Shown here: piece by piece, positions 7,395 to 40,144 of the stretch
Position numbering within the stretch: position 1 is the first letter of the stretch
Layout of the letters: each line of letters opens with the position of its first letter
DNA from: Candidatus Woesearchaeota archaeon
GTDB lineage: Archaea; Nanobdellota; Nanobdellia; Pacearchaeales; GW2011-AR1
NCBI GenBank assembly: GCA_964410025.1
Contig: CAYPFA010000001.1
Location: forward strand, 31,401 to 95,400
Reading direction: 5' to 3'
Length of the DNA stretch: 64,000 nucleotides
Translations under genes and position numbers: made by a program
Notes under the pieces: model-generated
Databases searched by the model: none
Seen by the model: the letters and a program-made list of their open reading frames with translations, nothing else
Told to the model about the DNA's origin: nothing

Positions 7395-8425
7395 ACATCA
7401 CCTTCGCTCAATCCAGAGAATTTTTAGAAAGCATCACAGAAAAAGATAAAGTTGCAATTTTCACACACAAAGATTTAGATGGATTTGCTGCAGGAATTTT
7501 ATTTCAAGATTTTTGCGAAAAAAAAGGCTGCAAAAAAGTTCAAACATTCATTATAGATTATGGGATGAATAAAATCAGCGATTATAATTTAGATGAATTT
7601 AATATTGGTTTAGCGTCAGACCTAGCACCTAGTTCAGTTGTGGAAGATTTTGCAAAAATAAAAGATAAAAAAATATTTTATACAGACCATCATCCCAAAG
7701 ATGAAAAATATAAAATTCCGGATGAAGTTTCCTGCTTTATTACAACTTCCCAAGGCTATTTACCATCCACAAGAACTGTTTATGAACTCACAGAAAAAGA
7801 AAACAAAGAAAAACTTTGGCTAGCAACACTCGGCACTCTTTCGGACATGGCAGAAAAATATCCAGAAAATAAAGATTTTTTAGAAAATGCCTATAAAAAA
7901 TTAGGAACAAATCAAGAAGAAATGCTAAAATATTTATTCAAACTAAACTTTGCCCTAGTTGGTTCTCCTTCGTTAGAAAAAGCCTTCGAAGAAATTTCTA
8001 AACTAGAAAATCTAGAAGATATAGTAAAACTTTCCAAATATTACGAACCTGTAGAAAAAGAATTTGCAAGACTAGAAAAAGATTATGAAAATAAAAAAGA
8101 AAGATTTAATAAAATTGTCTATTATTATATTGAAACAGCCTATCCTGGATTAAAATCCGCATTTATTAATGCCATTTCCACCAAAGAGCCAGACAAAGCA
8201 TTAGTATTCACAACCACAAAAAAGAATAGCACGCTATCATTATCGTCCAGAAATCAATCAAGAGAATATAATGTATCAAAACTATTGCAAGATTGTTTAG
8301 CCGGATTAAAAGAAGGCTGGGCAGGCGGACACAAATCTGCAGCAGGCGGCCAACTAGACAAATCAGACCTAGAAAAATTTAAACAAAAATTAAAAAACTA
8401 CGATGTAGAATCAGCTAAAATATGA
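7391..8425 (+). CDS. DHH/DHHA1 family phosphoesterase
   Basis: DLDGFAAG, TDHHP and GGHKSAAGG motifs. Confidence 0.7.
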   Translation: MNITFAQSREFLESITEKDKVAIFTHKDLDGFAAGILFQDFCEKKGCKKVQTFIIDYGMNKISDYNLDEFNIGLASDLAPSSVVEDFAKIKDKKIFYTDHHPKDEKYKIPDEVSCFITTSQGYLPSTRTVYELTEKENKEKLWLATLGTLSDMAEKYPENKDFLENAYKKLGTNQEEMLKYLFKLNFALVGSPSLEKAFEEISKLENLEDIVKLSKYYEPVEKEFARLEKDYENKKERFNKIVYYYIETAYPGLKSAFINAISTKEPDKALVFTTTKKNSTLSLSSRNQSREYNVSKLLQDCLAGLKEGWAGGHKSAAGGQLDKSDLEKFKQKLKNYDVESAKI

Positions 8426-8820
8426 AAAAAATAAAGAAAAAAAATATAGAAGCATCAAACCTAATCGAAGAAGCAACAGAAATAATTCAAAATTGCATTA
8501 AATGTGGAATGTGCAAATCACTGTGTCCAGTTTTCAAATCACTAAAAGAAGAAGACGTTTCTCCAAGAGGCCACTCTATATTAATAAAAGAAAAAATAAT
8601 AAACGAACTATTATTTCAATGCACTCTCTGTAAGGCCTGCGAACAAAAATGCCCACTAAATTTAAAAATCTGCGACGCCATAAGAAATGCAAGAGAAGCT
8701 ATGGTTTTGCAAGAGCAAGGTCTAAAATCCAACAAGGAAATGATTGAAAACACACGAGAATCTGGAAGTCCGTTCGGAAAAGATAAAAAAATCTCTAAAG
8801 ACAAATTATATTGCTGTTAA
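8422..8820 (+). CDS. 2x[4Fe-4S] ferredoxin-type domain protein (GlcF N-terminal-like)
   Basis: CIKCGMCKSLCP and CTLCKACEQKCP cluster motifs. ATGA overlap with the DHH gene. Confidence 0.65.
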   Translation: MKKIKKKNIEASNLIEEATEIIQNCIKCGMCKSLCPVFKSLKEEDVSPRGHSILIKEKIINELLFQCTLCKACEQKCPLNLKICDAIRNAREAMVLQEQGLKSNKEMIENTRESGSPFGKDKKISKDKLYCC

Positions 8821-8865
8821 TCTCCCTACAATAATCTTTAAATATTGACTTTTCCATTAATAACT

Positions 8866-10881
8866 ATGCAAAAAAGAGAAAAGGTGATCTTCGCATTTTT
8901 AGGAATGCTAGTTTTAAACATTTTAGTAGCATCTGCCACGATTGAAATTACACAACCACTAGAAACATACAACTTTGGAGATTCAATTTTCACAACGGTA
9001 ACGCTAAACCCCCAAACAGTTTCTGGAAGTTTTGAAATCAATCTTTTCTGTGAAAACAAAACAGCCAATTTCTATAAAATAGCGCCAGCAGATGGGGCTT
9101 TTTCAGCGAATAAAGAACAAAAAATAAATCACAAAATAACATTAACAAAAGAATTTATCGAAAATCTTTCAGGGAAATGTAAAATTATTGTAATCCTAGG
9201 CAAAGAATCAATCTCCTCCAACGAATTTTTATTAACAAAGGAAATTACACTAACGACAAAAACAGATAAAGCTATATATAATCCTGGAGAAAAAATAATC
9301 TGGTCTCTAGAAGCACAAAAAGCAAATGAAATGCCACTTAACGGATTTGTAGAAATTTCTAGTAATATAACAAATTCAGCTAATGAAGTTATAGGCGGAA
9401 AGGCAACAAACTCATTTACTCTAGAAAATAATGCTAGAGCAGGAAGATACGAGCTTTCATTTTTTGCATACGATAAAGACGAAAATGGAATTTTAAATGA
9501 AAAAAGACAAAGCCTATTCTATGATATTAGGCAAGTTCCAACAAAAATAGAAGCAAGCATGTCTTCGCTTGAAGCAACACCTGGACAAAGCTTTGAATTT
9601 GGAGTAGATTTATTCGACCAATCTAATGAGAAAATGCCCGGAACACTTTCCTCTATTTACACTTCGGAAAAAAATGACAATAAACAAATTAGTGCCGAAT
9701 CAGGTTCAGTTGTAAAAATAGACTTTGCACAAAATGCAACACCTGGAAAATATTCTTTAGTGGTTTCACAAGGTAATTTAAAAACAACTAAAGAATTTTC
9801 ACTTAAAGAAGTTCCAAAATTAGACATTCAATTTTTAGAAAATTCTTCTATACTTCTTATAAGAAACATTGGAAACGTAATCTACAACAATAGTCTGGAT
9901 GTTGAACTAGGTGGAAAAATTACAAAAATAGAACTTAACTTAGCAGTTGGTGAAGAAAAGAAGTTTAACATAAGAGCTCCCGATGGATCCTACGATGTTA
10001 CGGCAACAAGCGGAGATTCCACAACTAAAAAGAATTTATTATTAACTGGAGACGTTATTTCAATTAGAGAAGGAAGCGGAACAATTATTTTTGAAGCAAG
10101 TCCATATATCTGGTTTTTCATCGTATCAATATTTTTATTATTAGGAACTACAATTTTTATGAAAAACAAAAAGCGAACGTTTAAATCCGAAGAAAGGTAT
10201 GGAAATGTTGTAGAGGAGAGGCCAACCTTAGAGCAAGTTAGCAAAAAAGCACATATGCAAAAACAATATCTCGATCTATCTCAACCAAGAATTAGTGAAG
10301 CAGAGTCAAATATATCTATGACAGGAAGCAAAGATTTCTGTTCTATAGTTTCGTTAAACATAAAAAATTCTAACGTTCTTGGCACCGAAGGAAACAGTAA
10401 AATAAATGAAATTTTAACAGAAGCTAAGTCTAGACTTGGTGTAGTAGATTGGAAAAGTCAACATGCTTTAATTATTTTCTCACCATTATTAACAAAGACT
10501 TACAATAATGAAATACTTGCAGCAAAAACTGCTTTTGAAATTAAAACAAAGATAGATGAATATAATAAAAGATTCAAGGATAAAATAGTCTATAACATAG
10601 GAATCCATGCAGGAGAGATGATTAACACTTTAATTAATGGAAAACTTAACTACACAAGCCTTGGAAATACTATAATCCTTGCAAGAAGAATTTCAGATTT
10701 AACAAATGAAAAACTTTTGGTCTCCGGAACATTTAGACAAAAATTATTAAGAGAATTAAAAGTTCAAAAAATAGAACATAAACTTGGCGACGTAGAAATT
10801 TATGAAGTTCAAAGAATCGCAGACATTGCTGCAAACGAAGAAAAACTTAAACAACTTTTAAAGAGAACAAATTTTAGTTAA
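8866..10881 (+). CDS. single-pass membrane protein with a large extracellular region and a cytoplasmic class III nucleotidyl-cyclase-like domain
   Basis: ATG 8866 is preferred over TTG 8845. It has an N-terminal signal anchor, about 420 aa of beta-rich ectodomain and one TM (YIWFFIVSIFLLLGTTIF). The C-terminal IGIHAGEM and GNTIILARRISD resemble cyclase catalytic motifs, but the first metal-binding Asp position reads SLNIKNS. Confidence 0.55.
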   Translation: MQKREKVIFAFLGMLVLNILVASATIEITQPLETYNFGDSIFTTVTLNPQTVSGSFEINLFCENKTANFYKIAPADGAFSANKEQKINHKITLTKEFIENLSGKCKIIVILGKESISSNEFLLTKEITLTTKTDKAIYNPGEKIIWSLEAQKANEMPLNGFVEISSNITNSANEVIGGKATNSFTLENNARAGRYELSFFAYDKDENGILNEKRQSLFYDIRQVPTKIEASMSSLEATPGQSFEFGVDLFDQSNEKMPGTLSSIYTSEKNDNKQISAESGSVVKIDFAQNATPGKYSLVVSQGNLKTTKEFSLKEVPKLDIQFLENSSILLIRNIGNVIYNNSLDVELGGKITKIELNLAVGEEKKFNIRAPDGSYDVTATSGDSTTKKNLLLTGDVISIREGSGTIIFEASPYIWFFIVSIFLLLGTTIFMKNKKRTFKSEERYGNVVEERPTLEQVSKKAHMQKQYLDLSQPRISEAESNISMTGSKDFCSIVSLNIKNSNVLGTEGNSKINEILTEAKSRLGVVDWKSQHALIIFSPLLTKTYNNEILAAKTAFEIKTKIDEYNKRFKDKIVYNIGIHAGEMINTLINGKLNYTSLGNTIILARRISDLTNEKLLVSGTFRQKLLRELKVQKIEHKLGDVEIYEVQRIADIAANEEKLKQLLKRTNFS

Positions 10882-20215: not shown

Positions 20216-20300
20216 ACCATATTGATGTTTTTGTGCTTTTTAAATGTTAAGAAACATATTCGTAAGCTTTAAAAGTCTTGAAAATTCTAAATTATTATAA

Positions 20301-20406
20301 GGGCCTATAAGCTAATGAACCATCGTGGTTGCTTATGGGTAAATAATAAATAAGGGCCTATAAGCTAATGAACCATCGTGGTTGCTTATGGGTAAATAAT
20401 AAATAA
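20301..20406 (+). repeat. two tandem 53-bp units, each starting with the first 17 nt of tRNA-Val
   Basis: Unit = GGGCCTATAAGCTAATG + AACCATCGTGGTTGCTTATGGGTAAATAATAAATAA. Identical copies lie at 20301-20353 and 20354-20406, and the third period begins the real gene at 20407. The unit is self-complementary (CCTATAAGC/GCTTATGGG and AACCA/TGGTT). Confidence 0.85.
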
Positions 20407-20477
20407 GGGCCTATAAGCTAATGGTAGACTCTCTCGCTTACACCGAGATGGCGGAGGTTCGATCCCTCCTGGGCCCA
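20407..20477 (+). tRNA. tRNA-Val (anticodon UAC)
   Basis: Acceptor GGGCCTA/TGGGCCC (one G-U), with T8, A14, G18G19 and A21. Anticodon arm TCTCG-CTTACAC-CGAGA and T arm GGAGG-TTCGATC-CCTCC. Discriminator A, and CCA is not encoded. The D stem has one C-A mismatch. Confidence 0.8.
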
Positions 20478-20503
20478 TTTAATATTTATAATTGAACCGG
20501 AGC

Positions 20504-20605
20504 TGGCGGAGGCGAAAATTTCGCTTTGAGTAAAAATAAATTAAGACAGAAAGCAATTTTTACGAAATGCAAAATTTGAGGAGATCCCTCCTGGGCCCAT
20601 TTAAT
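20504..20605 (+). repeat. partial 3' copy of tRNA-Val with 70 nt inserted in the T loop
   Basis: 20504-20512 TGGCGGAGG equals tRNA nt 44-53. A 70-nt insert follows (20513-20582). Then 20583-20605 GATCCCTCCTGGGCCCATTTAAT is identical to 20461-20483 (tRNA nt 57-73 plus 6 nt of flank). Confidence 0.7.
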
Positions 20606-24848: not shown

Positions 24849-24929
24849 AATATTAAAATTAAAGAGCACTACAAATCTTTTTAAATCCTCGAAAAGTTAC
24901 ATTCTTAGGCAGTCGTGGTTAAGTGGTAG
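24849..24929 (+). repeat. 81-bp direct repeat, left copy (tRNA-Gly promoter region plus first 21 nt of the tRNA)
   Basis: AATATTAAAATTAAAGAGCACTACAAATCTTTTTAAATCCTCGAAAAGTTACATTCTTAGGCAGTCGTGGTTAAGTGGTAG is identical to 32151-32231. Downstream of nt 21 the sequence diverges into AT-rich DNA. Confidence 0.8.
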
Positions 24930-25035
24930 TTAAGTACCTTGTAGTATAATATATTTTGTGTTTACAATAGATACAATAACGACTCTTTAGTGACAAAATA
25001 GATAGATTTAAAATATTGTTTTTTATATAGATTAT

Positions 25036-26481
25036 ATGGTAGAGACAATATTGCTGGTTGGATTTGGTCATCACGCTAGAAGAATCTATTATCCTGTCTT
25101 AAATGAGGCAAGGGAGAAATATGATTTTATTATTGTAGATGTTGATAACCAAAAAGAAAGTATTGAAGGATTTTTTGCAGAAAGAGAACATAAGCCAAAG
25201 AAGATTATTTTATTAAAACAATTTTCAGAAGAGTTGCCAGAATTACCTCAAGAAACTAAGGCAATTCTTGATGCTGTAGTTGATAATTATAAAATAAAAG
25301 GAATGATCATATCTACTGATCCTCTTTATCATTTACACTATGCAAAATGGGCTCTAAAAAGAGAAATTTCTATTCTAATGGATAAGCCAATTAGTGCCCG
25401 TAAAAATATGTCTAGTGATGTGAACCAAGCCGAAAAGTTAAATAAGGATTATCAGGAGCTTTATGATCTCTATAGTACAAAAAGAAATAAGATTTTGTTC
25501 TCAGTTGTGTCACAAAGAAGATTTCATAGCGGCTTTCAAAAAGCAAAAGAGTTAATTAAAGAAGTTTTTGAAAAAACAAACTGTCCGATAACGTCTATAC
25601 AAATTAACCATGCAGATGGACAGTGGAGATTGCCAAATGAAATTATAGACATAGATTATCATTCATTTAATCAGGGATTTGGAAAATGTTCTCACTCTGG
25701 ATATCATTTTATTGATCTTCTTACGTTTTTATTTGAGGGTGCTACGAATGAAAGTAAGAAAGTAGACAATGTGGAAGTTTTTTCTAGTTTTCTAACTCCT
25801 CTAGATCATCTAAATCAGATTAGTTTAGAGGATTATGACAAATTATTTAGTAATTTTAGAGATTATAACAAATATAGTCATGAAGAATTAAAGAGAAAAA
25901 TGAGATTATTTGGAGAGATTGACGCATTTATTAATATGAATTTCAAGATTGGAGAAAATATAATCACTCTTTGTAGTTTAAATCTAGTACATAATGGATT
26001 CTCTCAGAGAGGTAATTTAATTCCAAATAAAGATCTATATAAAGGAAATGGGAGAGTAAGGCACGAAAGCTATATCATACAACAAGGTCCATTTCAATGT
26101 TTGCACATAGATTCTCTTCAATCTTCTGAAATTAAGGCAAACTCTGAGCCAAATTATGATATAGGCGGTGAGTATCATTTCGATATACATATTTTTAGGA
26201 ATGATAAGTTTAATAGCAAGTGGAAGAATTATGAAAAAATATCTATAAGACAATTACAGAAAAATAAAATGCTTAATTTATCTAGGGGACATCAAGAAGA
26301 TGCTAGAAGAGAAGCTACTTTTGAATTTTTGAATTATTTGGAGGGAGAGAGGAAAAAAGAATATGTGTCGGATTTCGCGCTTCATAAGAATACTGTGAAG
26401 CTTATAGCAGGAATTTACAAGTCTTCAGTCTTGAAACTAAATAATTCTAATCCATTGGTTAAAATTTCTTATGACTCCTAA
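25036..26481 (+). CDS. Gfo/Idh/MocA-like NAD(P)-dependent oxidoreductase
   Basis: N-terminal Rossmann start ILLVGFGHHARRIYYPVL, plus ISTDPLYHLHYAKWALKREISILMDKPIS (the EKP-like motif of the family). Confidence 0.6.
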   Translation: MVETILLVGFGHHARRIYYPVLNEAREKYDFIIVDVDNQKESIEGFFAEREHKPKKIILLKQFSEELPELPQETKAILDAVVDNYKIKGMIISTDPLYHLHYAKWALKREISILMDKPISARKNMSSDVNQAEKLNKDYQELYDLYSTKRNKILFSVVSQRRFHSGFQKAKELIKEVFEKTNCPITSIQINHADGQWRLPNEIIDIDYHSFNQGFGKCSHSGYHFIDLLTFLFEGATNESKKVDNVEVFSSFLTPLDHLNQISLEDYDKLFSNFRDYNKYSHEELKRKMRLFGEIDAFINMNFKIGENIITLCSLNLVHNGFSQRGNLIPNKDLYKGNGRVRHESYIIQQGPFQCLHIDSLQSSEIKANSEPNYDIGGEYHFDIHIFRNDKFNSKWKNYEKISIRQLQKNKMLNLSRGHQEDARREATFEFLNYLEGERKKEYVSDFALHKNTVKLIAGIYKSSVLKLNNSNPLVKISYDS

Positions 26482-27181
26482 AATATACGTAGTTGGTTTT
26501 GATGGCTTGCATAGATCTGGGAAAGGTACTCAAATTAATTATTTAAAAGAATATCTTACTGCAAGTGAGAGTCCTCATGTTGTTATTCGGGGAGATGGCA
26601 CTAGGCGGGGAAAAGGAGAGTTATCTTATGATCCAAAGTCAACTTGGTGGCAATTTAATTATGATTATTTTTTTAAACCAGATTCTTCCCCAAGCGAGAC
26701 TTTATATAAAAGGAATTTGCTCTATCAAAGAATTTCAAGAGAGGCTCAATTTTGGCTAAGAAGGGGATTGCCAACTATTGCTAGAGATTCTTCTGCAAAT
26801 AGAGCATTTTTAGTAATGGATCGAACTTTCTTATCTAGGTTATTTGTTATGAGGCAGATATGTCCGTCAATTAGCATAGATGAGGCTCTAAATTCTTATA
26901 ATCCAAATAATTCTAATATTGTTGAGTCTATTATACCAGATATAACCTTTGCTCTAGATGTTTCTAAAACAGAGTTACTCAGAAGGTGCGAAAGTGCAAC
27001 GGATCAGCCAGATAAGGCGGATTTTAGAAGGAACAATTTATTGAATCACTATGGGCTTTATGAGAAAGTTCTGGACGAAGTTTGTAGAGATTCGAGATTT
27101 AATGTTTGTCGTGTACCTGGGGAGTCTTCTCCGGAGGAGATCCATTCTTTTGTAAAAAAAGTAGTAATGGAGATGAAATGA
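26471..27181 (+). CDS. P-loop nucleoside/nucleotide kinase-like protein (dTMP-kinase-like fold)
   Basis: VVGFDGLHRSGKGTQ Walker A resembles the E/GxDGxGKST of thymidylate/deoxynucleoside kinases. Overlaps the upstream gene by 11 nt. Confidence 0.55.
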   Translation: MTPKIYVVGFDGLHRSGKGTQINYLKEYLTASESPHVVIRGDGTRRGKGELSYDPKSTWWQFNYDYFFKPDSSPSETLYKRNLLYQRISREAQFWLRRGLPTIARDSSANRAFLVMDRTFLSRLFVMRQICPSISIDEALNSYNPNNSNIVESIIPDITFALDVSKTELLRRCESATDQPDKADFRRNNLLNHYGLYEKVLDEVCRDSRFNVCRVPGESSPEEIHSFVKKVVMEMK

Positions 27182-28479
27182 GTGAAATTAAATGGTTCAA
27201 TTTTAAGAAAAACGACAGTAAAACAGATATATATTGTTCGAATGAAAAAAAATTGAAACTTTCTAGTTTGGCTATTATGAAAGAACTTGATTTGGCTTGG
27301 TTTAACTTTTTTGTAAAAAATACATCTAATGGGGGAGTATTGAAAAAAAATACATATGCTGAAGATTTTAATAAAGTGAGATTGGTACATATAACTTCTT
27401 CTTTCGATGAGATAGTTCGCACTGGAAAGATTTTCCCTAGCGGAGGAGGCTTAGGGTCTGTAATATATTGCTCACCCTTACATAAAGAAAATAGCGTTCA
27501 TAATCTATTTGAGCAATATCTTCATTTTCAGTTGCCAAAACATACTCCTAAAGAATTAACTCCGTTATGTATAGAGATCTCTTTAGAAAGAAGAGACAAG
27601 GATAATCTCAGTAGTTATGGAGTTGACTATACTAATTTTGGAGAGTTACATTGTATGGTGTGGAAAGTTCTGAAACGTGAACTTATGAAACCTTATATTG
27701 CAGAATTTGAAAATAAAATAAGTAGTCAAGTTATGAAATTACGAGATGTGTTTAATGTTTTTATAGATTATAACTTAAATTCGGTTTCTAGCAAAAAGTT
27801 AAGAGAATATTATAACAGCATTTTTATAGGGACCCCTTCCTTGAGATTCATTTTATATGAGATTCTTGCAGAATATATTTTATTATATCAAGACAATAAG
27901 AAGGCAGTTAAATATCGTGATATCGGTGAACTTTATAATTTGTCTCATAAGAAGTTTATATTTGATTTGTGCCCGTCTATGTTGAAAAGATTTAATATGA
28001 GGGAGTTTTTTATAAAAATAGAAGACATAGAGGAATATTTTTCTAAGTCTGATATCTTTGTTGAATTTAATAAGGATCAATTTGAGTGGTTTTTGAAGTG
28101 GAGAATGGGATTTTATATCAAGAAACTTTGTTTAAGGAAAATAGATTCTATAAACAGTTTTGATCAGTTAGTTTCAAATTATCCTAGGCTAGTTGGACAA
28201 ATAATTTATAGGGATTTCTTTGATAAAAATTTATTTGAACGAGTTAGAAGTAAAATTATATATCCTATGTGGAAAAAAGATAGAATTATTTGCCCTATTT
28301 ATCCAATTCTTCCAAAGGGCGAAGTTGGAGTAAATCCCTGTTTAGATGAATTGGGAGTGAAATATAAAATATATAAGGCAAAATATGACTCGAGAAGAGG
28401 AAAATTAATTTTATTGAAGGAGTTAAATATAAAATTAAATTCAGAATTAATATCTAAAGCCAAAACAACAGTAAGATGA
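27178..28479 (+). CDS. hypothetical protein (433 aa) with no recognisable motif
   Basis: Start chosen at MSEIKWFNF, where ATGA overlaps the kinase stop. The longer track ORF (27106) would overlap the kinase by 76 nt. Confidence 0.5.
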   Translation: MSEIKWFNFKKNDSKTDIYCSNEKKLKLSSLAIMKELDLAWFNFFVKNTSNGGVLKKNTYAEDFNKVRLVHITSSFDEIVRTGKIFPSGGGLGSVIYCSPLHKENSVHNLFEQYLHFQLPKHTPKELTPLCIEISLERRDKDNLSSYGVDYTNFGELHCMVWKVLKRELMKPYIAEFENKISSQVMKLRDVFNVFIDYNLNSVSSKKLREYYNSIFIGTPSLRFILYEILAEYILLYQDNKKAVKYRDIGELYNLSHKKFIFDLCPSMLKRFNMREFFIKIEDIEEYFSKSDIFVEFNKDQFEWFLKWRMGFYIKKLCLRKIDSINSFDQLVSNYPRLVGQIIYRDFFDKNLFERVRSKIIYPMWKKDRIICPIYPILPKGEVGVNPCLDELGVKYKIYKAKYDSRRGKLILLKELNIKLNSELISKAKTTVR

Positions 28480-29237
28480 GTATGCCTCTTTATTTAAAAA
28501 TTCAGAACAAAGTATTTGAAGATTTGCAGATTTTAGATTTAGAAACTTTAGAATGGATTAGAAGCAGACAAAATCCAAAGATATTTAGTATTTCTGAAAA
28601 TAAAGCCGATTTTAAACCTCTTAACGAAGAGGAAATAAAAGAAGTAATTCCCAAATTAGAATGGTTTAGTAATTCAAATAGGGCATTAAGTATTCATGGT
28701 AGATCACACGCAGTTAGAACTACTTTATTTTCATATGCTATTTGCAAATTAAATAATATTAGCAGTTATAAAAAGCATCTTGTTGCTGCTAGTATACATG
28801 ATATCTCTAGGGGTGTTGATAATGATGATTTTGATCATGGTGAAAGGTCAGCTAATTGGTTTAAAGAAAATCATAGTTTGTTTAGAGGGTTAACACAAAA
28901 AGAAAAAGAAGAGATATATTTTGCAGTGTACTATCATGATATTGAGCAAGAAAATATTCCAATAGAAATATTAGACAAAAATAGGGAGATTATCAATGTT
29001 CTCAAGTGTGCAGATGCATTAGATCGTTTTAGGTTGCCAAAAGAGAAATGGTGGCCAAATAGAAATTTTTTCAAGATAGATATTCCCGACTGGGTTTTTG
29101 AAATGGCTAAATGGTTAGTTTATCAATCAGAACTAGATATTATTAAATATTCTAAAGACCCAGTAGATGCTGTTTTAAGTTTAGGATTTAAGGCAGGATT
29201 AAATAAGTTTATAAATAAATCTTCTATTCCTATCTAA
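28476..29237 (+). CDS. HD-domain phosphohydrolase
   Basis: HGRSHAVR ... AASIHDISRG ... YYHD ... CADALDR gives the H..HD..D pattern. ATGA overlap with the upstream gene. Confidence 0.6.
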   Translation: MSMPLYLKIQNKVFEDLQILDLETLEWIRSRQNPKIFSISENKADFKPLNEEEIKEVIPKLEWFSNSNRALSIHGRSHAVRTTLFSYAICKLNNISSYKKHLVAASIHDISRGVDNDDFDHGERSANWFKENHSLFRGLTQKEKEEIYFAVYYHDIEQENIPIEILDKNREIINVLKCADALDRFRLPKEKWWPNRNFFKIDIPDWVFEMAKWLVYQSELDIIKYSKDPVDAVLSLGFKAGLNKFINKSSIPI

Positions 29238-29647
29238 TGGACGAAAAATACTTGTTTAAGGTTATTGTGGCAGCAGTTATATTTAATGAAGATAAGAAAT
29301 TTCTATTAGCAAAAAGAAGCTTAACTGAAGACGTCTTGCCGGGATATTGGGGTATACCTGGTGGGAAAGTAGAAACACGAGGCAATATACCTAATATTTT
29401 AGAGTACGAAGTAAAAAGAGAAGTCTTGGAGGAGGTAGGTATAGAGGTTGATGATTTAAAATATATAGAAAGTCATATGAATGATAGTGGGAAATTGAAT
29501 GTTTGTTTTTCGTGTAAAATTTCTGGCGGAGTTCCAAAAGCACTAGAAGATACTTCAGAAGTTGGATGGTTTTCCCTAAAAGAAGCGGAATGCATGCAAC
29601 TAACCCCTCATACCTTAGAAAGATTAAAGACTGCAATAGGTAATTAG
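29237..29647 (+). CDS. Nudix hydrolase
   Basis: Nudix box GGKVETRGNIPNILEYEVKREVLEEVGI. TAATG overlap with the HD gene. Confidence 0.8.
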   Translation: MDEKYLFKVIVAAVIFNEDKKFLLAKRSLTEDVLPGYWGIPGGKVETRGNIPNILEYEVKREVLEEVGIEVDDLKYIESHMNDSGKLNVCFSCKISGGVPKALEDTSEVGWFSLKEAECMQLTPHTLERLKTAIGN

Positions 29648-31326
29648 TTCTTTTTTATTAAAAAATTTCCTAGCGCCAGATAATCTAGGCCACTAGAATA
29701 GAAAGCCTTTATCGCATCACGAGGAGTACAAACAATCGGTTCACCCTTTCCGTTAAAGGAGGTATTCATAACAACTGGTATCTTAGTTATTTTTTCGAAT
29801 TCTTCAATGAGTTTATGAAATTTTTCATTTACTTCTTTTTTTACCGCGTGCGGTCTAGCCGTGCCATCTACATGAACTACTGCCGGTATATCTTTTATTT
29901 TTGAGCTTACTACATTAGATCCAACAATCATAAAACTAAAGCAGTCATTCAATTCAAAGAATTTATTCTTTCTCTCATAAAGTATACTTGGAGCGAATGG
30001 CCTCCATAACTCTCTTTCTTTTATAATATTTACATTTTTCCACATGTTAATGTTTTTAGGATCAGATAAAACAGATCTGTTACCTAGTGATCTTGGTCCG
30101 AATTCCATTCTTCCCTGAAACCACCCTACTATTTTTCCATCACTTATTAGTTTTGCGCACTTAGAACATATATTGCTTTCTTTTGTGTAACTTATTTTGA
30201 ATTTTTTAAGTTCTTTTTCTATTTCATTATCACTAAATTCTGGCCCAAAATATGTTGTTTCATATCTATTATTTGTTTTTTTGTCAACTTTTGCAGAGTA
30301 TTCCAAAGCGGCGCCGATTGATGATCCAGCGTCATTTGAAGCTGGCTGAACATAAATTTCTTTTACTTTTTTAGATTCTAATATTCTTTGGTTAGCTATA
30401 CAATTAAGTGCCACCCCGCCACTTAAACATAATTTATCTTGCCCGGTTAATTTGACGGCCAAGTCTACCAGTTTTAGTATTTTCTTTTCTAGAACTTTTT
30501 GTGCAGATGCAGCAATATTTTTTTGAATGTTTGAAAAATCAACTGTTTTTGAGAATTCTCCTGTCATTTTGTTAAAGGAAGTATTTGTTTTGTCTTTTTC
30601 TCCAAAAAGATTCTCAAAGTTTTCAATCCATTTAGAAACAATAATTGTTTGTTGTCCTCTTTTATTTTTTAATTCTTTTGAGTCTAAGGTAATATTTATT
30701 GATTCTAGCTTTTTTATAATTTCTTCGTCTGGTTTTCCATAGGGTGCTAACCCCATTAATTTTCCTTCATCCCCGTTTCTCATTCCAATATATCTTTCTA
30801 TTGAGCTATAAAAATACCCTATAGAATCTTCGATTTTGTTGTTCCAAACTTTTTTTATTTTATTTCCCTTGCCCGCCCATATGGACGCAGAGCAATATTC
30901 GCCTTGCCCATCTATCACAAGTATAGCGGCATTCTCAAACCCAGAGCACCTAAAAGAGCTAGATGCGTGCGCCAAATGATGTTCTACGTAGCCAATCTTA
31001 GGTATTTTTTTGTATTGAAAATATTTTTTTGGAAAAAATTTATTTAATATATCTTCTGGAGGTACAGAGTAAATTGTTTCTCTATCTGGTCCGACATTTT
31101 CCCAATCCCAACTAAATACCACATAATCAATATCATCTAATTCTAGTTTTTGGCTATCTAGACAAGCTTTTACGCTTAATAATGGTAGAGAGTCATATGC
31201 ACGTTTTTTCCTAAGTAGTCTTTCTTCTTCTATTGCAAATTTTATTTCTCCATCTACTACGAGAGTAGCAGAGACATCGTGGTTAACACTAAGCCAGGGG
31301 GAGGCATTAATCCCTAAAATCTTCAT
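29644..31326 (-). CDS. carbamoyltransferase (NodU/CmcH/TobZ family)
   Basis: MKILGINASPWLSVNHDVSATLVVDGEIKFAIEEERLLRKK N-terminus and C-terminal NTSFNGKGEPIV..PRDA, typical of the family at 560 aa. Confidence 0.85.
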   Translation of the reverse strand: MKILGINASPWLSVNHDVSATLVVDGEIKFAIEEERLLRKKRAYDSLPLLSVKACLDSQKLELDDIDYVVFSWDWENVGPDRETIYSVPPEDILNKFFPKKYFQYKKIPKIGYVEHHLAHASSSFRCSGFENAAILVIDGQGEYCSASIWAGKGNKIKKVWNNKIEDSIGYFYSSIERYIGMRNGDEGKLMGLAPYGKPDEEIIKKLESINITLDSKELKNKRGQQTIIVSKWIENFENLFGEKDKTNTSFNKMTGEFSKTVDFSNIQKNIAASAQKVLEKKILKLVDLAVKLTGQDKLCLSGGVALNCIANQRILESKKVKEIYVQPASNDAGSSIGAALEYSAKVDKKTNNRYETTYFGPEFSDNEIEKELKKFKISYTKESNICSKCAKLISDGKIVGWFQGRMEFGPRSLGNRSVLSDPKNINMWKNVNIIKERELWRPFAPSILYERKNKFFELNDCFSFMIVGSNVVSSKIKDIPAVVHVDGTARPHAVKKEVNEKFHKLIEEFEKITKIPVVMNTSFNGKGEPIVCTPRDAIKAFYSSGLDYLALGNFLIKKN

Positions 31327-31582
31327 AAAAATAAATGATTAACTACCTTTAAATATTTAGCGCAACATTCAAATATAATAAAGAGTAATTACTTTTATGA
31401 AAAATAGGGTTCATAATATAATATAGATAATTCATCCAGTTCATAAAAAATATATAAAAACGCGTTAAAAACTATAGTTTCCTCAATTTATTATTGTGTT
31501 TGATCAATAAATAGGTTATTAGTAAAGAGTATTGCTAGAAGTAGCATATATAAAAAAATACCTAAAGAAGATTAAAATATTT

Positions 31583-32095
31583 TTAGGAATACAACTCTTT
31601 AAATTTAGATAAAAATAAAAAATCTCTTTTTAAAACAAATTGATGAGTATAAGCAGATGGAGAACATTTTTTTAATAAAAGAAGAGCTTCATCAAGAGGG
31701 ACCCAACAGATTTTAAATTTTTCATCTTTCTTTAAATAAGAATCTTTATCATTTTTAATATCAAAAGCATTGCAAATAAAACAATTAGAAATCTGAATTT
31801 GCCCATATTTGTTCTTATGCTCTGTGACTACTCCAAACTCTTTAAAACCATCAGCACTGCAATTAATCTCTTCTCTTATAATTCTTGAAAGAGCAGCTAC
31901 ATAGTCTTCGTTACCCAATATCTCTCCTCCTGGTAATTTGTAGTAATCATCACTATCAGATCTAATAATTGCGACATTCCTATTAGTGTCTAAAACAATT
32001 GCTCGTACAGTTTTTCTTAACCGAAACTCCTCTTTGTCCCAGATTATCTCTTTTCCAAAAACATCCATATCTGTTATCTCGTGTATAAATTGCAT
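31583..32095 (-). CDS. Nudix hydrolase (second copy in island)
   Basis: Nudix box GGEILGNEDYVAALSRIIREEINC. Confidence 0.75.
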   Translation of the reverse strand: MQFIHEITDMDVFGKEIIWDKEEFRLRKTVRAIVLDTNRNVAIIRSDSDDYYKLPGGEILGNEDYVAALSRIIREEINCSADGFKEFGVVTEHKNKYGQIQISNCFICNAFDIKNDKDSYLKKDEKFKICWVPLDEALLLLKKCSPSAYTHQFVLKRDFLFLSKFKELYS

Positions 32096-32150: not shown

Positions 32151-32231
32151 AATATTAAAATTAAAGAGCACTACAAATCTTTTTAAATCCTCGAAAAGTT
32201 ACATTCTTAGGCAGTCGTGGTTAAGTGGTAG
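32151..32231 (+). repeat. 81-bp direct repeat, right copy (functional promoter plus 5' part of tRNA-Gly)
   Basis: Identical to 24849-24929. The TTTTTAAAT TATA-like box is centred about 27 nt upstream of tRNA position 1. Confidence 0.8.
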
Positions 32232-32281
32232 AATATGACCTTGCCAAGGTTGTGACCCGAGTTCGATTCTCGGCGACTGCA
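32211..32281 (+). tRNA. tRNA-Gly (anticodon GCC)
   Basis: Acceptor GCAGTCG/CGACTGC and D loop AAGTGGTA. Anticodon arm TGACC-TTGCCAA-GGTTG and T arm CCGAG-TTCGATT-CTCGG. Discriminator A, and CCA is not encoded. Confidence 0.85.
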
Positions 32282-32329
32282 TAGAACAAAAGTGTTCAAC
32301 ATGAGAATCTTTATAAAATAAAATCATTG

Positions 32330-32372
32330 CCGAGAAGCGAAGGAGGAGAGTGAGATTCTCGGCGACTGCATA
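32330..32372 (+). repeat. partial 3' copy of tRNA-Gly with an expanded T loop
   Basis: CCGAG is followed by 19 nt (AAGCGAAGGAGGAGAGTGA) replacing TTC. Then GATTCTCGGCGACTGCATA is identical to 32265-32283 (tRNA nt 57-73 plus 2 nt). Confidence 0.7.
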
Positions 32373-39585: not shown

Positions 39586-39783
39586 AGCTTTGTTGAGCTA
39601 CCATGTTATACTCCGAGAAATAAAAAATTGCGAGTAGGGAATCGGATTTGTAGATTTATAGGCAGATGGGCTGGAAGGTGCGAGCAAAACGCTTTTGCTT
39701 TTATCTTGCACAGCAACTATTATTTCGTTTTTCGCAAATGCATTTTGTGAGTAAAGAATCGGACTGACCGATTCACATTTAAG

Positions 39784-39927
39784 GGCGGAAGGTGTGAGAC
39801 CTTTAGAGAAGGTCATCCCCACGGGAAATCGGACTTGTCCGATGAACACATTAAAGGCGGAAGGTGTGAGGCCTTTAGAGAAGGTCATCCCCACGGGAAA
39901 TCGGACTTGTCCGATGAACACATTAAA
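39784..39927 (-). repeat. two tandem 72-bp units, each a cloverleaf-like fold ending in the tRNA-His 3' terminus
   Basis: Unit (minus strand) = TTTAATGTGTTCATCGGACAAGTCCGATTTCCCGTGGGGATGACCTTCTCTAAAGG[C/T]CTCACACCTTCCGCC. Copies lie at 39927-39856 and 39855-39784 with 1 mismatch. The last 13 nt equal the T-stem 3' strand, acceptor 3' strand and C73 of the adjacent tRNA-His. A degenerate further copy CGCACCTTCCAGCC lies at 39682-39669. Confidence 0.85.
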
Positions 39928-40083
39928 GGCGGAAGGTGTGAATCGGACACACGTCTCACGAGTTCTGTCTTGTTGTCTGTCGCCAGACAGGAAGGATAGT
40001 TTTTCTACCTTCCTAGAGGCTCTTTTTTCTAAAAAGAACCTGTAGACCACAGTCGCGTATTCTACCATTGAACTACATCCGCC
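39928..40083 (-). tRNA. tRNA-His (anticodon GUG) with an 84-nt intron at 37/38
   Basis: The 5' exon is encoded G-1, GCGGATG, D arm GTTC-AATGGTA-GAAT, then CGCGA-CTGTGG. The intron spans 40046-39963. The 3' exon is C-TCGTG, AGAC, T arm GTGTG-TCCGATT-CACAC, CTTCCGC and discriminator C73 opposite G-1. Splice sites lie in 3-nt bulges (GG|T and AA|C) flanking a CTGT/ACAG helix, a relaxed bulge-helix-bulge. Confidence 0.7.
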
Positions 40084-40097
40084 ATATTTATTTCTGA

Positions 40098-40144
40098 ACG
40101 TCTCTGAGCCACAGTCACGCATTCTACCATTGAACTACCGAGCT
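40098..40144 (-). pseudogene. intron-less partial tRNA-His-like copy (about positions 1-47) immediately upstream of tRNA-His
   Basis: AGCTCGG-TA-GTTCAATGGTAGAAT-G-CGTGA-CTGTGG-CTCAGAGACGT. The D arm and anticodon loop are identical to tRNA-His, but the acceptor strand differs, there is no G-1 and no matching 3' strand. A TATA-like ATTTAAAG lies about 28 nt upstream. Confidence 0.5.

Follow-up and report, generated by a model that had tools for sequence, protein, structure and literature searches.

A conserved seven-gene block of DPANN archaea with an undescribed protein family and a candidate role in nucleotide tailoring

Why should a small archaeal genome keep side by side seven genes that look like enzymes of nucleotide chemistry and match no described pathway? 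The question is raised by a stretch of 64,000 nt from a Candidatus Woesearchaeota archaeon (assembly GCA_964410025.1, contig CAYPFA010000001.1, positions 31,401 to 95,400 of the forward strand), referred to here as the window, and by the genes g1 to g7 within it (Table 1). An earlier note, made from the sequence alone, had described them as the cargo of an island and as a coherent but unassigned set. Our analysis shows mostly known enzyme families, newly arranged around an undescribed protein family, g3. The block forms a genuine operon-like unit of DPANN archaea that is also transferable. Our tentative reading is of a pathway in the cytosol for the tailoring of a pyrimidine (deoxy)nucleotide, with O-carbamoylation by a TobZ-like enzyme as one of its steps.

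The Candidate Phyla Radiation (CPR) bacteria and the DPANN archaea make up a large share of microbial diversity, have tiny genomes and depend on hosts for their nucleotides. A strongly conserved and undescribed nucleotide-tailoring network in these groups points to new nucleotide chemistry, and it may be central to their lifestyle.

A unit kept in many DPANN archaea

The coupling described in the earlier note proved exact: successive overlaps along the forward genes g1 to g5 measure 11, 4, 4 and 1 nt. The convergent pair g5 and g6 also shares 4 nt. The note had also raised the possibility that the genes are not conserved as a unit anywhere else. We found the unit in many DPANN archaea. Genes g1 to g6 are collinear in at least nine distinct DPANN loci, with g3 identity falling as low as 43%. 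Eight of the loci compared (L001, L004, L008, L009, L010, L011, L012 and L015) preserve g1-g2-g3-g4-g5 and the convergent g6 in exactly this order, and L045 and L079 carry variant versions. Identities among related clusters range from 36 to 78%, and the cluster proteins have their closest relatives in metagenome-assembled genomes of Pacearchaeota and Woesearchaeota. The flanking genes are unrelated from one genome to another: RtcB/archease in L001, IF-2/S6e and eIF2-gamma in L004, and ribosomal L1/L10/L12 in L015.

It is scarcely credible, given this conservation, that the seven genes form no functional unit and lie together through the compact packing of a small genome. The pairing of g1 with a kinase and a Nudix gene, and that of g3 with an HD gene, do occur apart elsewhere, and g6 and g7 lie on the opposite strand, as chance adjacency would have it. 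Against this, at least eight divergent genomes, their flanks unrelated, share the order of g1 to g5 with convergent g6, adjacent genes overlap at start and stop codons, and a direct repeat encloses exactly these genes. Synteny already contradicts chance adjacency. The seven genes are not one indivisible system, but two separable modules (g1, kinase and Nudix; g3 and HD) plus a carbamoyltransferase.

Accessory genes vary between related loci. In L001, L004 and L008 a 211-aa ThyA-like gene and a second Nudix gene sit between g6 and the flank, and L001 also carries a LOG-like gene and a further Nudix. An FkbM-family methyltransferase, absent from the window, is conserved in the Woesearchaeota-like versions of the cluster, lying divergently upstream of g1 (L010 2497-3351, L012 593-1387, L015 7102-7905). 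Locus L004 has g1 split into ORFs (open reading frames) of 257 and 217 aa (7877-9305), while L005, a second assembly of the same population, has it intact at 480 aa (432-1874); the split reflects a frameshift variant or else an error of assembly.

A phage origin was considered and rejected: tblastn with g1 and g3 gave no match in 50,697 GenBank phage records, and g1 had none in IMG/VR. A known defence system was likewise rejected. In the comparison with a defence predictor that the earlier note had proposed, the only PADLOC match above the default threshold was the generic Nudix model PDC-S07, on g5 and g7; g4 and g6 gave marginal matches (E 0.015 and 0.026, ~12 bits). The NCBIfam scan of the seven products gave no equivalog-level match, and PHROGs recognised well only the Nudix proteins and the carbamoyltransferase. 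None of the four libraries (Pfam, NCBIfam, PADLOC, PHROGs) gave a match at the level of a whole system, the profile searches pointed to no known pathway for sugar nucleotides or cofactors, and we found no description of this gene combination in the literature. The note's view of a coherent set outside any described pathway or defence system therefore stands.

In the 433 residues of g3 the note had recognised no motif. Our searches agree. The protein matched nothing in Pfam, NCBIfam, PHROGs or PADLOC, and a Pfam scan of 86 diverse family members, one by one, also gave nothing. Its AlphaFold2 (AF2) model (predicted local distance difference test, pLDDT, 90; predicted template modelling score, pTM, 0.91) has a beta-sheet core, with three N-terminal and three C-terminal strands around a helical insert of ~230 residues. 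The fold search suggested for this gene (27178-28479), run with Foldseek against the PDB and BFVD, returned nothing below E 0.7, and searches of PDB sequences with profiles of 12 and 86 sequences found no relative. Only 12 close relatives occur in 5.8 billion proteins; an exhaustive profile search reached 231 representative clusters. His71, Ser88 and Glu382 are the same in all 86 sequences, and Thr73, Gly90, Tyr97, His108, Asn109, Glu228, Glu251, Lys258 and a PKGExG motif are nearly invariant. A longer alternative ORF of g3 has a TTG start at 27106.

The spacing H71...Y97-x10-H108...E382 may resemble that of the H-Y-E ADP-ribosyltransferases, a likeness that no search confirmed and to which we give little weight: there was no ADP-ribosyltransferase match in the PDB by Foldseek below E 1.8, nor in the PDB and Pfam profile searches.

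From its sequence and its fusions, g4 is predicted to be an HD-superfamily phosphohydrolase and the functional partner of g3. It scores under the cut-off of PF01966 (HD; E 2.2e-3, 18.7 bits against 22), and its nearest solved structure is an uncharacterised HD hydrolase (2pq7, E 1.6e-3). In 11 homologues the H...HD...D ligands are kept, with His74, Asp109 and Asp183 invariant and His108 nearly so. Elsewhere g3 and g4 are fused, in both orders (P0163, 686 aa; P0143 and P0176, ~770 aa).

More distant g3 homologues in CPR genomes lie among nucleotide genes. One array reads CYTH, a 241-aa protein, g3, ThyA-like, CYTH, P-loop kinase; the 241-aa protein is Pfam-negative and g4-like by position only. 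Another reads methyltransferase, dCMP deaminase, g3, and in a third setting g3 lies near a ThyA-like gene. With a confident model, an HD fusion, a rare ThyA-like neighbour and no match in Pfam or among solved structures, g3 is a well-defined target for enzyme discovery.

Enzyme families and their candidate substrates

What might the block act on? The family assignments made in the earlier note for the other six genes were upheld: Pfam matched all six, and the weak ones among these matches gained independent confirmation from Foldseek for g1, a profile search for g2 and ligand conservation for g4. The most conserved of the seven is g1, which falls just under the gathering cut-off of PF01408 (GFO_IDH_MocA; E 2.7e-4, 22.1 bits against 24). 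The best Foldseek match of its AF2 model (pLDDT 92) is the glucuronide 3-dehydrogenase 8tdi (E 1.4e-16, probability 1.00), followed by an NAD-dependent glycoside hydrolase, DgpA, levoglucosan dehydrogenase, KijD10, GenD2 and WlbA. The model points clearly to a Gfo/Idh/MocA-fold enzyme resembling sugar C3-dehydrogenases. About 80 residues are invariant across 32 homologues, among them G9-x-G11 (GxGxxA), D116-K117-P118 (DKP) and H220/H224/D227 (HxxxH/D). Homologues number more than 1300, at 45-70% identity, mostly from Patescibacteria and DPANN.

We surveyed the neighbourhood of g1 in 80 metagenome loci plus two found earlier and clustered the neighbouring genes. A thymidylate-kinase-family kinase nearly always adjoins g1 on the same strand. 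In 44 of 81 loci this kinase is of the g2 type, without exception on the strand of g1, and in 7 it is closer to a canonical Tmk; no locus has both types. A Nudix gene adjoins g1 in 34 loci. Several arrangements recur. In one, g1, kinase and Nudix are sometimes followed by a dCMP deaminase and a methyltransferase. In another, seen in many CPR-like loci (L021, L027-L029, L038, L056, L070), a ribonucleotide reductase on the opposite strand is followed by kinase, g1, a ComB-like 2-phosphosulfolactate phosphatase and a radical SAM/SPASM gene. A third runs GT8, g1, GT2, GT2, O-methyltransferase, Tmk. In a fourth a carbamoyltransferase precedes g1 and an aminotransferase follows; an aminotransferase lies downstream of g1 only in L080, L082, L083 and L094, loci unrelated to the DPANN cluster. 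ThyA-like genes are also sometimes neighbours of g1, and some loci have GTP cyclohydrolase II-like and NIF3 genes nearby.

The kinase g2 matches PF02223 (Thymidylate_kin; E 7.7e-7), and a profile of 26 homologues found thymidylate kinases as its best PDB matches (3hjn, E 4.8e-15). The P-loop K18, the DR motif D117-R118 and R172 of the LID are nearly invariant. As g2 keeps these motifs but fails the TIGR00041 equivalog test by a wide margin (26.9 bits against a cut-off of 83.25), it is a member of the family and not an orthologue.

Both Nudix proteins score above the gathering threshold of PF00293 (g5, E 1.7e-14; g7, E 2.4e-8). The best NCBIfam matches of g5, all under their cut-offs, are a Nudix hydrolase and the pyrimidine deoxynucleoside or nucleoside triphosphate ((d)NTP) diphosphatase NudG, and g5 is 50-72% identical in all related clusters. 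The Nudix box of g7, read by eye, is partly degenerate. Orthologues 35-43% identical to it adjoin the ThyA-like gene in three loci (L001, L004 and L008) and are located upstream in a fourth (L045).

The carbamoyltransferase g6 is well over the cut-offs for both domains of its family (Carbam_trans_N, E 2.5e-53, and Carbam_trans_C, E 1.4e-65; the two scores are 220.5 and 182.2 bits). It keeps the motifs HHLAHA, DGQGE and GPRSLGNRS and aligns at full length with TobZ (3ven, E 6.5e-100), to which it is ~40% identical by an estimate from the alignment.

We read this context as that of a cytosolic pathway acting on a pyrimidine (deoxy)nucleotide because the neighbours are a thymidylate-kinase-like kinase, ThyA-like enzymes, dCMP deaminase and ribonucleotide reductase, because these are linked with g1, the Nudix genes, g3, g4 and the carbamoyltransferase, and because the products are soluble. 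None of the seven has a hydrophobic segment, so all should be soluble and cytosolic. The earlier note had offered three roles. Of these, synthesis of a carbamoylated nucleoside compound is the best supported, modification of a surface-glycan precursor is weaker, since there are no membrane proteins or glycosyltransferases here, and a defence module has no direct support.

The strongest competing reading is a sugar or cyclitol pathway. Here g1 would oxidise C3 of a nucleoside diphosphate (NDP) sugar, a glycoside or an inositol-like compound, which g6 would carbamoylate in the way TobZ acts on aminoglycosides. Such a pathway would yield a precursor of surface glycans or a metabolite resembling aminoglycosides, with the kinase, Nudix and HD enzymes handling the nucleotide carrier or phosphorylated intermediates. 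We consider this rather doubtful, although several observations fit it: the structural matches of g1 to sugar 3-dehydrogenases, including WlbA, KijD10 and GenD2, the closeness of g6 to TobZ, the several CPR loci that place g1 between GT8 and GT2 glycosyltransferases with an O-methyltransferase, and the others that place it beside a carbamoyltransferase and an aminotransferase. The g3 family adds to these. A g3-like domain lies inside giant multi-enzyme proteins (P0243, 4266 aa; P0269, 5619 aa; P0258, P0260, P0255), of which the two with an assigned source name belong to Candidatus Omnitrophota. In the three giants scanned its co-domains are 3-dehydroquinate-synthase-like, ROK kinase, epimerase, HAD, phosphoribosyltransferase, and APH or radical-SAM. 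However, nucleotidyltransferase, glycosyltransferase, flippase and membrane-protein genes are all missing from the DPANN cluster, the near-constant partner of g1 is a thymidylate-kinase-family kinase, and a sugar or cyclitol product leaves the link of g3 to ThyA-like genes, dCMP deaminase and CYTH unexplained.

Six of the relatives (L001, L004, L008, L017, L045 and L079) were found to carry the ThyA-like gene. In the window tblastn gave no match to it below E 0.1 anywhere in the 64 kb, and the gap between g6 and g7 holds no ORF and no ThyA-like remnant. The protein (~211 aa) lacks the N- and C-terminal parts of ThyA and keeps the catalytic Cys. It shares MRAN[DN]A[FY]R with the CMP hydroxymethylase MilA, as well as an S-x-H-I-Y motif, and its score against MilA (PDB 5b6d, E 8.4e-20) is about equal to its scores against true thymidylate synthases. 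Asp at position 177 is associated with cytosine substrates and an acidic residue at 143 with non-methyl products (PMC13326640, PMC8670742). The equivalent of E. coli N177 is Asn in L001, L004, L008 and L017 and Asp in L045, L079 and L098; that of L143 is Ile, Leu, Lys or Gly, never acidic. The family has only 9 close members, on the same contigs as the cluster. This rarity and the Asn/Asp toggle indicate a specialised enzyme, and make a general housekeeping thymidylate synthase of DPANN unlikely. Its product may carry a methyl, a hydroxymethyl or another group. In L063 (5579-6226, minus strand) a ThyA-like gene beside g1, kinase and Nudix has Gly in place of the catalytic Cys, so normal thymidylate synthase activity is not possible there.

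A simpler use of these genes would be thymidylate supply: Nudix and dCMP deaminase would lead to dUMP, the short ThyA-like enzyme would be a real thymidylate synthase and g2 a real thymidylate kinase, with g1, g3 and g4 regenerating or supplying an unusual one-carbon carrier or reductant in organisms without folate synthesis. The ThyA-like proteins of the closest relatives do have the thymidylate-synthase state (Asn and Ile/Leu at the two positions), g2-type and canonical kinases replace each other near g1, and ribonucleotide reductase and dCMP deaminase are neighbours, as in places are the GTP cyclohydrolase II-like and NIF3 genes. We nevertheless find it improbable. The ThyA-like family is as rare as g3, its members in L045, L079 and L098 carry the cytosine-type Asp and would be incapable of dTMP synthesis, the window and several relatives hold the cluster without it, g2 is far from the dTMP-kinase equivalog cut-off, and the carbamoyltransferase would have no role.

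Family membership, synteny, fusions and neighbourhoods are observed; from them we infer substrates, an order of steps and a fate for the product of the pyrimidine pathway. The Nudix hydrolases g5 and g7 would turn a (d)NTP into the monophosphate ((d)NMP). In related genomes the rare ThyA-like enzyme would then put a one-carbon unit on C5, of dUMP where it has Asn and of dCMP where it has Asp; as the window has no such gene, its pathway would start from an already substituted nucleotide or use an enzyme encoded elsewhere. Next, g1 may oxidise or reduce a hydroxyl, most simply the 3'-OH on the sugar of the nucleotide, by analogy with Pur10 of the puromycin pathway, and g6 would O-carbamoylate a hydroxyl with carbamoyl phosphate and ATP. 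The thymidylate-kinase-like g2 would re-phosphorylate the modified NMP. Finally, g3 and g4 could act as a two-part enzyme, the HD half hydrolysing a phosphoester and the g3 half, with its invariant His, Ser and Glu, carrying out hydrolysis or group transfer on that nucleotide too. This would yield a modified pyrimidine nucleotide bearing a carbamoyl group, for the cell's own nucleic acid or for release as an analogue.

Several of the observations above weigh against this proposal. The window has no ThyA-like gene. Where relatives have one, the Ile or Leu at the L143 equivalent is the state linked to methyl transfer, not hydroxymethylation, so a hydroxymethyl acceptor for g6 is not predicted. 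Three discriminating residues of g6 are of the TobZ type (W408/G421/R423), and the protein has much greater similarity to TobZ than to the phage enzyme that carbamoylates 5-hydroxymethylcytosine (5hmC). The enzymes structurally nearest to g1 have glycosides and NDP-sugars as substrates rather than the ribose of nucleotides, and the glycosyltransferase neighbours of g1 elsewhere, like the sugar-phosphate enzymes fused to g3-like domains, fit a sugar pathway. The block also has no aminotransferase, unlike the Pur pathway.

A bolder extension is that DPANN archaea, and many CPR bacteria through the network of g1, kinase, Nudix and ThyA-like genes, put a non-canonical pyrimidine deoxynucleotide into their own chromosomal DNA. 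We regard this as quite improbable. If true, it would be phage-style pre-replicative hypermodification in cellular organisms, with g3 and g4 as a new enzyme pair, and it could let host-dependent cells tell their own DNA from scavenged host DNA.

The bracketing repeat and the genomic setting

Was the block acquired? The two copies of a 93-nt direct repeat, 95% identical, enclose exactly the seven genes. The left copy ends 95 nt upstream of the g1 start. The right copy starts 60 nt upstream of a tRNA-Gly gene and reaches into its first ~33 nt. The island label of the earlier note gains some support from this bracketing, although the Pfam scan showed no integrase among the seven genes. The composition gives the label no help: GC content is 30-36% across the whole window and the cluster shows no compositional break against its flanks. 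No tRNA genes were found beside related clusters, so the association with tRNA-Gly is specific to this genome.

Within the repeat a T/A-rich box lies ~25-30 nt upstream of the tRNA start. This suggests that the left copy could be a borrowed, duplicated tRNA promoter driving g1 to g5.

Table 1. Features of the block and its bracketing repeat, in window coordinates
Feature	Position	Strand	Length	Description
Left repeat copy	24849-24941	+		Promoter-like stretch and first ~33 nt of tRNA-Gly
g1	25036-26481	+	481 aa	Gfo/Idh/MocA-fold NAD(P) oxidoreductase (predicted)
g2	26471-27181	+	236 aa	Thymidylate-kinase-family P-loop kinase, divergent
g3	27178-28479	+	433 aa, counted from ATG	Undescribed family
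g4	28476-29237	+	253 aa	HD-superfamily metal-dependent phosphohydrolase (predicted)
g5	29237-29647	+	136 aa	MutT/NudG-like Nudix hydrolase
g6	29644-31326	-	560 aa	TobZ/NodU/CmcH-type O-carbamoyltransferase, convergent with g5
Gap	31327-31582		257 bp	AT-rich, non-coding; holds the ThyA-like gene in related clusters
g7	31583-32095	-	170 aa	Second Nudix hydrolase
Right repeat copy	32151-32243	+		Runs into the intact tRNA-Gly(GCC) gene at 32211-32281

The surroundings in the window are housekeeping genes: pyruvate phosphate dikinase, adenylate kinase, tRNA-Val and tRNA-Gly, histidyl-tRNA synthetase, histidinol dehydrogenase, DnaK, thioredoxin reductase and a class I aminoacyl-tRNA synthetase. Both tRNA genes have repeated ends. 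The 3' end of tRNA-Gly (32259-32283) recurs 89 nt downstream at 32348-32372 with 92% identity, and that of tRNA-Val (20461-20483) recurs 122 nt downstream at 20583-20605 with 100% identity. A tandem array of ~2.4 copies of a 53-nt unit (20297-20423) reaches into tRNA-Val at its 5' end. Earlier integrations at both tRNA genes may have left these repeats as scars.

Elsewhere in the window Rfam matched a tRNA over 155 nt on the minus strand (39928-40082, model positions 1-71, 43.8 bits). ARAGORN did not report it, and it falls inside the mechanical ORF 39598-40122; it could be an intron-containing archaeal tRNA.

Comparison with known systems

Which known systems come closest? The first is the phage system for 5-carbamoyloxymethyldeoxycytidine (5cmdC). 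Yang et al. (2021, eLife) described a TobZ-family enzyme from phage, its gene adjacent to that of a ThyA homologue, that carbamoylates 5hmC in dNTPs, DNA and RNA (PMC8670742). In that system the carbamoyltransferase is linked to the ThyA homologue, a nucleotide pyrophosphatase and a dCMP deaminase. Related DPANN clusters hold the same combination together with a dNMP-kinase-like gene. The cluster differs in being cellular rather than viral, in the window's lack of a ThyA-like gene and in having g1, g3 and g4, which have no counterpart in the phage. The signature of the phage hydroxymethylases, Asp at the N177 equivalent together with an acidic L143 equivalent, is not found in the ThyA-like proteins of the relatives. 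We also rejected g6 as an orthologue of the phage carbamoyltransferase. The two are 24% identical, and at the three discriminating positions g6 reads GWFQGRMEFGPRSLGNRS and the phage enzyme FINIVRGNMEFGPRALCNTT; carbamoyltransferases with the TobZ-type residues are associated with no action on DNA (Yang et al., PMC8670742).

The second is the core shared by the puromycin, A201A and ADG pathways (Pur10, Pur4, Pur7, Pur3). Pur10 is a dehydrogenase of ATP, dependent on NAD and similar to RifL, that works with the Nudix enzyme Pur7, and together with an aminotransferase and a phosphatase they give 3'-amino-3'-deoxy nucleosides; homologues of Pur10, Pur7 and Pur3 also make the GTP mimic ADG, and Pur7 is listed among resistance-mediating enzymes (PMC11641026, PMC9239236). 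Like this core, which joins an NAD-dependent nucleotide-sugar dehydrogenase to a Nudix NTP pyrophosphatase and a phosphatase, the block has dehydrogenase-like, Nudix (g5 and g7, by Pfam) and phosphohydrolase parts. Pur10 is likened to g1 by description, not by sequence, g1 resembling sugar 3-dehydrogenases. There is no aminotransferase among the seven genes in the Pfam scan or in the DPANN clusters, the block adds a Tmk-like kinase, a carbamoyltransferase and g3, and its context suggests pyrimidines rather than ATP or GTP.

The Pur precedent also bears on purpose. As a variant of the pyrimidine pathway, the sugar- or base-modified nucleotide might serve as a weapon that poisons the polymerase of a virus, host or competitor, with the Nudix and HD enzymes protecting the producer as Pur7 does. 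The 3'-amino nucleosides made by the Pur enzymes and the resistance role of Pur7 favour it; the variable accessories of g1 (radical SAM, aminotransferase, glycosyltransferases, carbamoyltransferase) resemble diversifying selection, and the repeats at a tRNA gene suggest horizontal acquisition. We think it unlikely, since the sole PADLOC match above threshold was a generic Nudix model, the block has no gene for export or immunity, and g1 is very strongly conserved, lies among ribosomal, aminoacyl-tRNA synthetase and ribonucleotide reductase genes in many reduced genomes and looks like core metabolism.

Two single enzymes complete the comparison. TobZ, the 6''-O-carbamoyltransferase of nebramycin and tobramycin, has over its full length the same two-domain architecture as g6 (Kae1-like and YrdC-like), with conserved metal-binding and carbamoyl-phosphate-binding motifs; the host of g6, however, is a DPANN archaeon without aminoglycoside genes, and g6 has nucleotide enzymes as neighbours. 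MilA and other short ThyA homologues share the catalytic Cys and both motifs with the ThyA-like enzyme of the relatives, which differs in its length of ~211 aa, its hydrophobic L143 equivalent and a base-specificity residue that is either Asn or Asp.

Phage 5hmC carbamoylation and the Pur10/Pur7 pathway are thus the closest precedents for a pathway tailoring pyrimidine nucleotides, and the block is a member of neither. The parallels to phage DNA hypermodification and to the aminonucleoside antibiotics give concrete, testable substrates.

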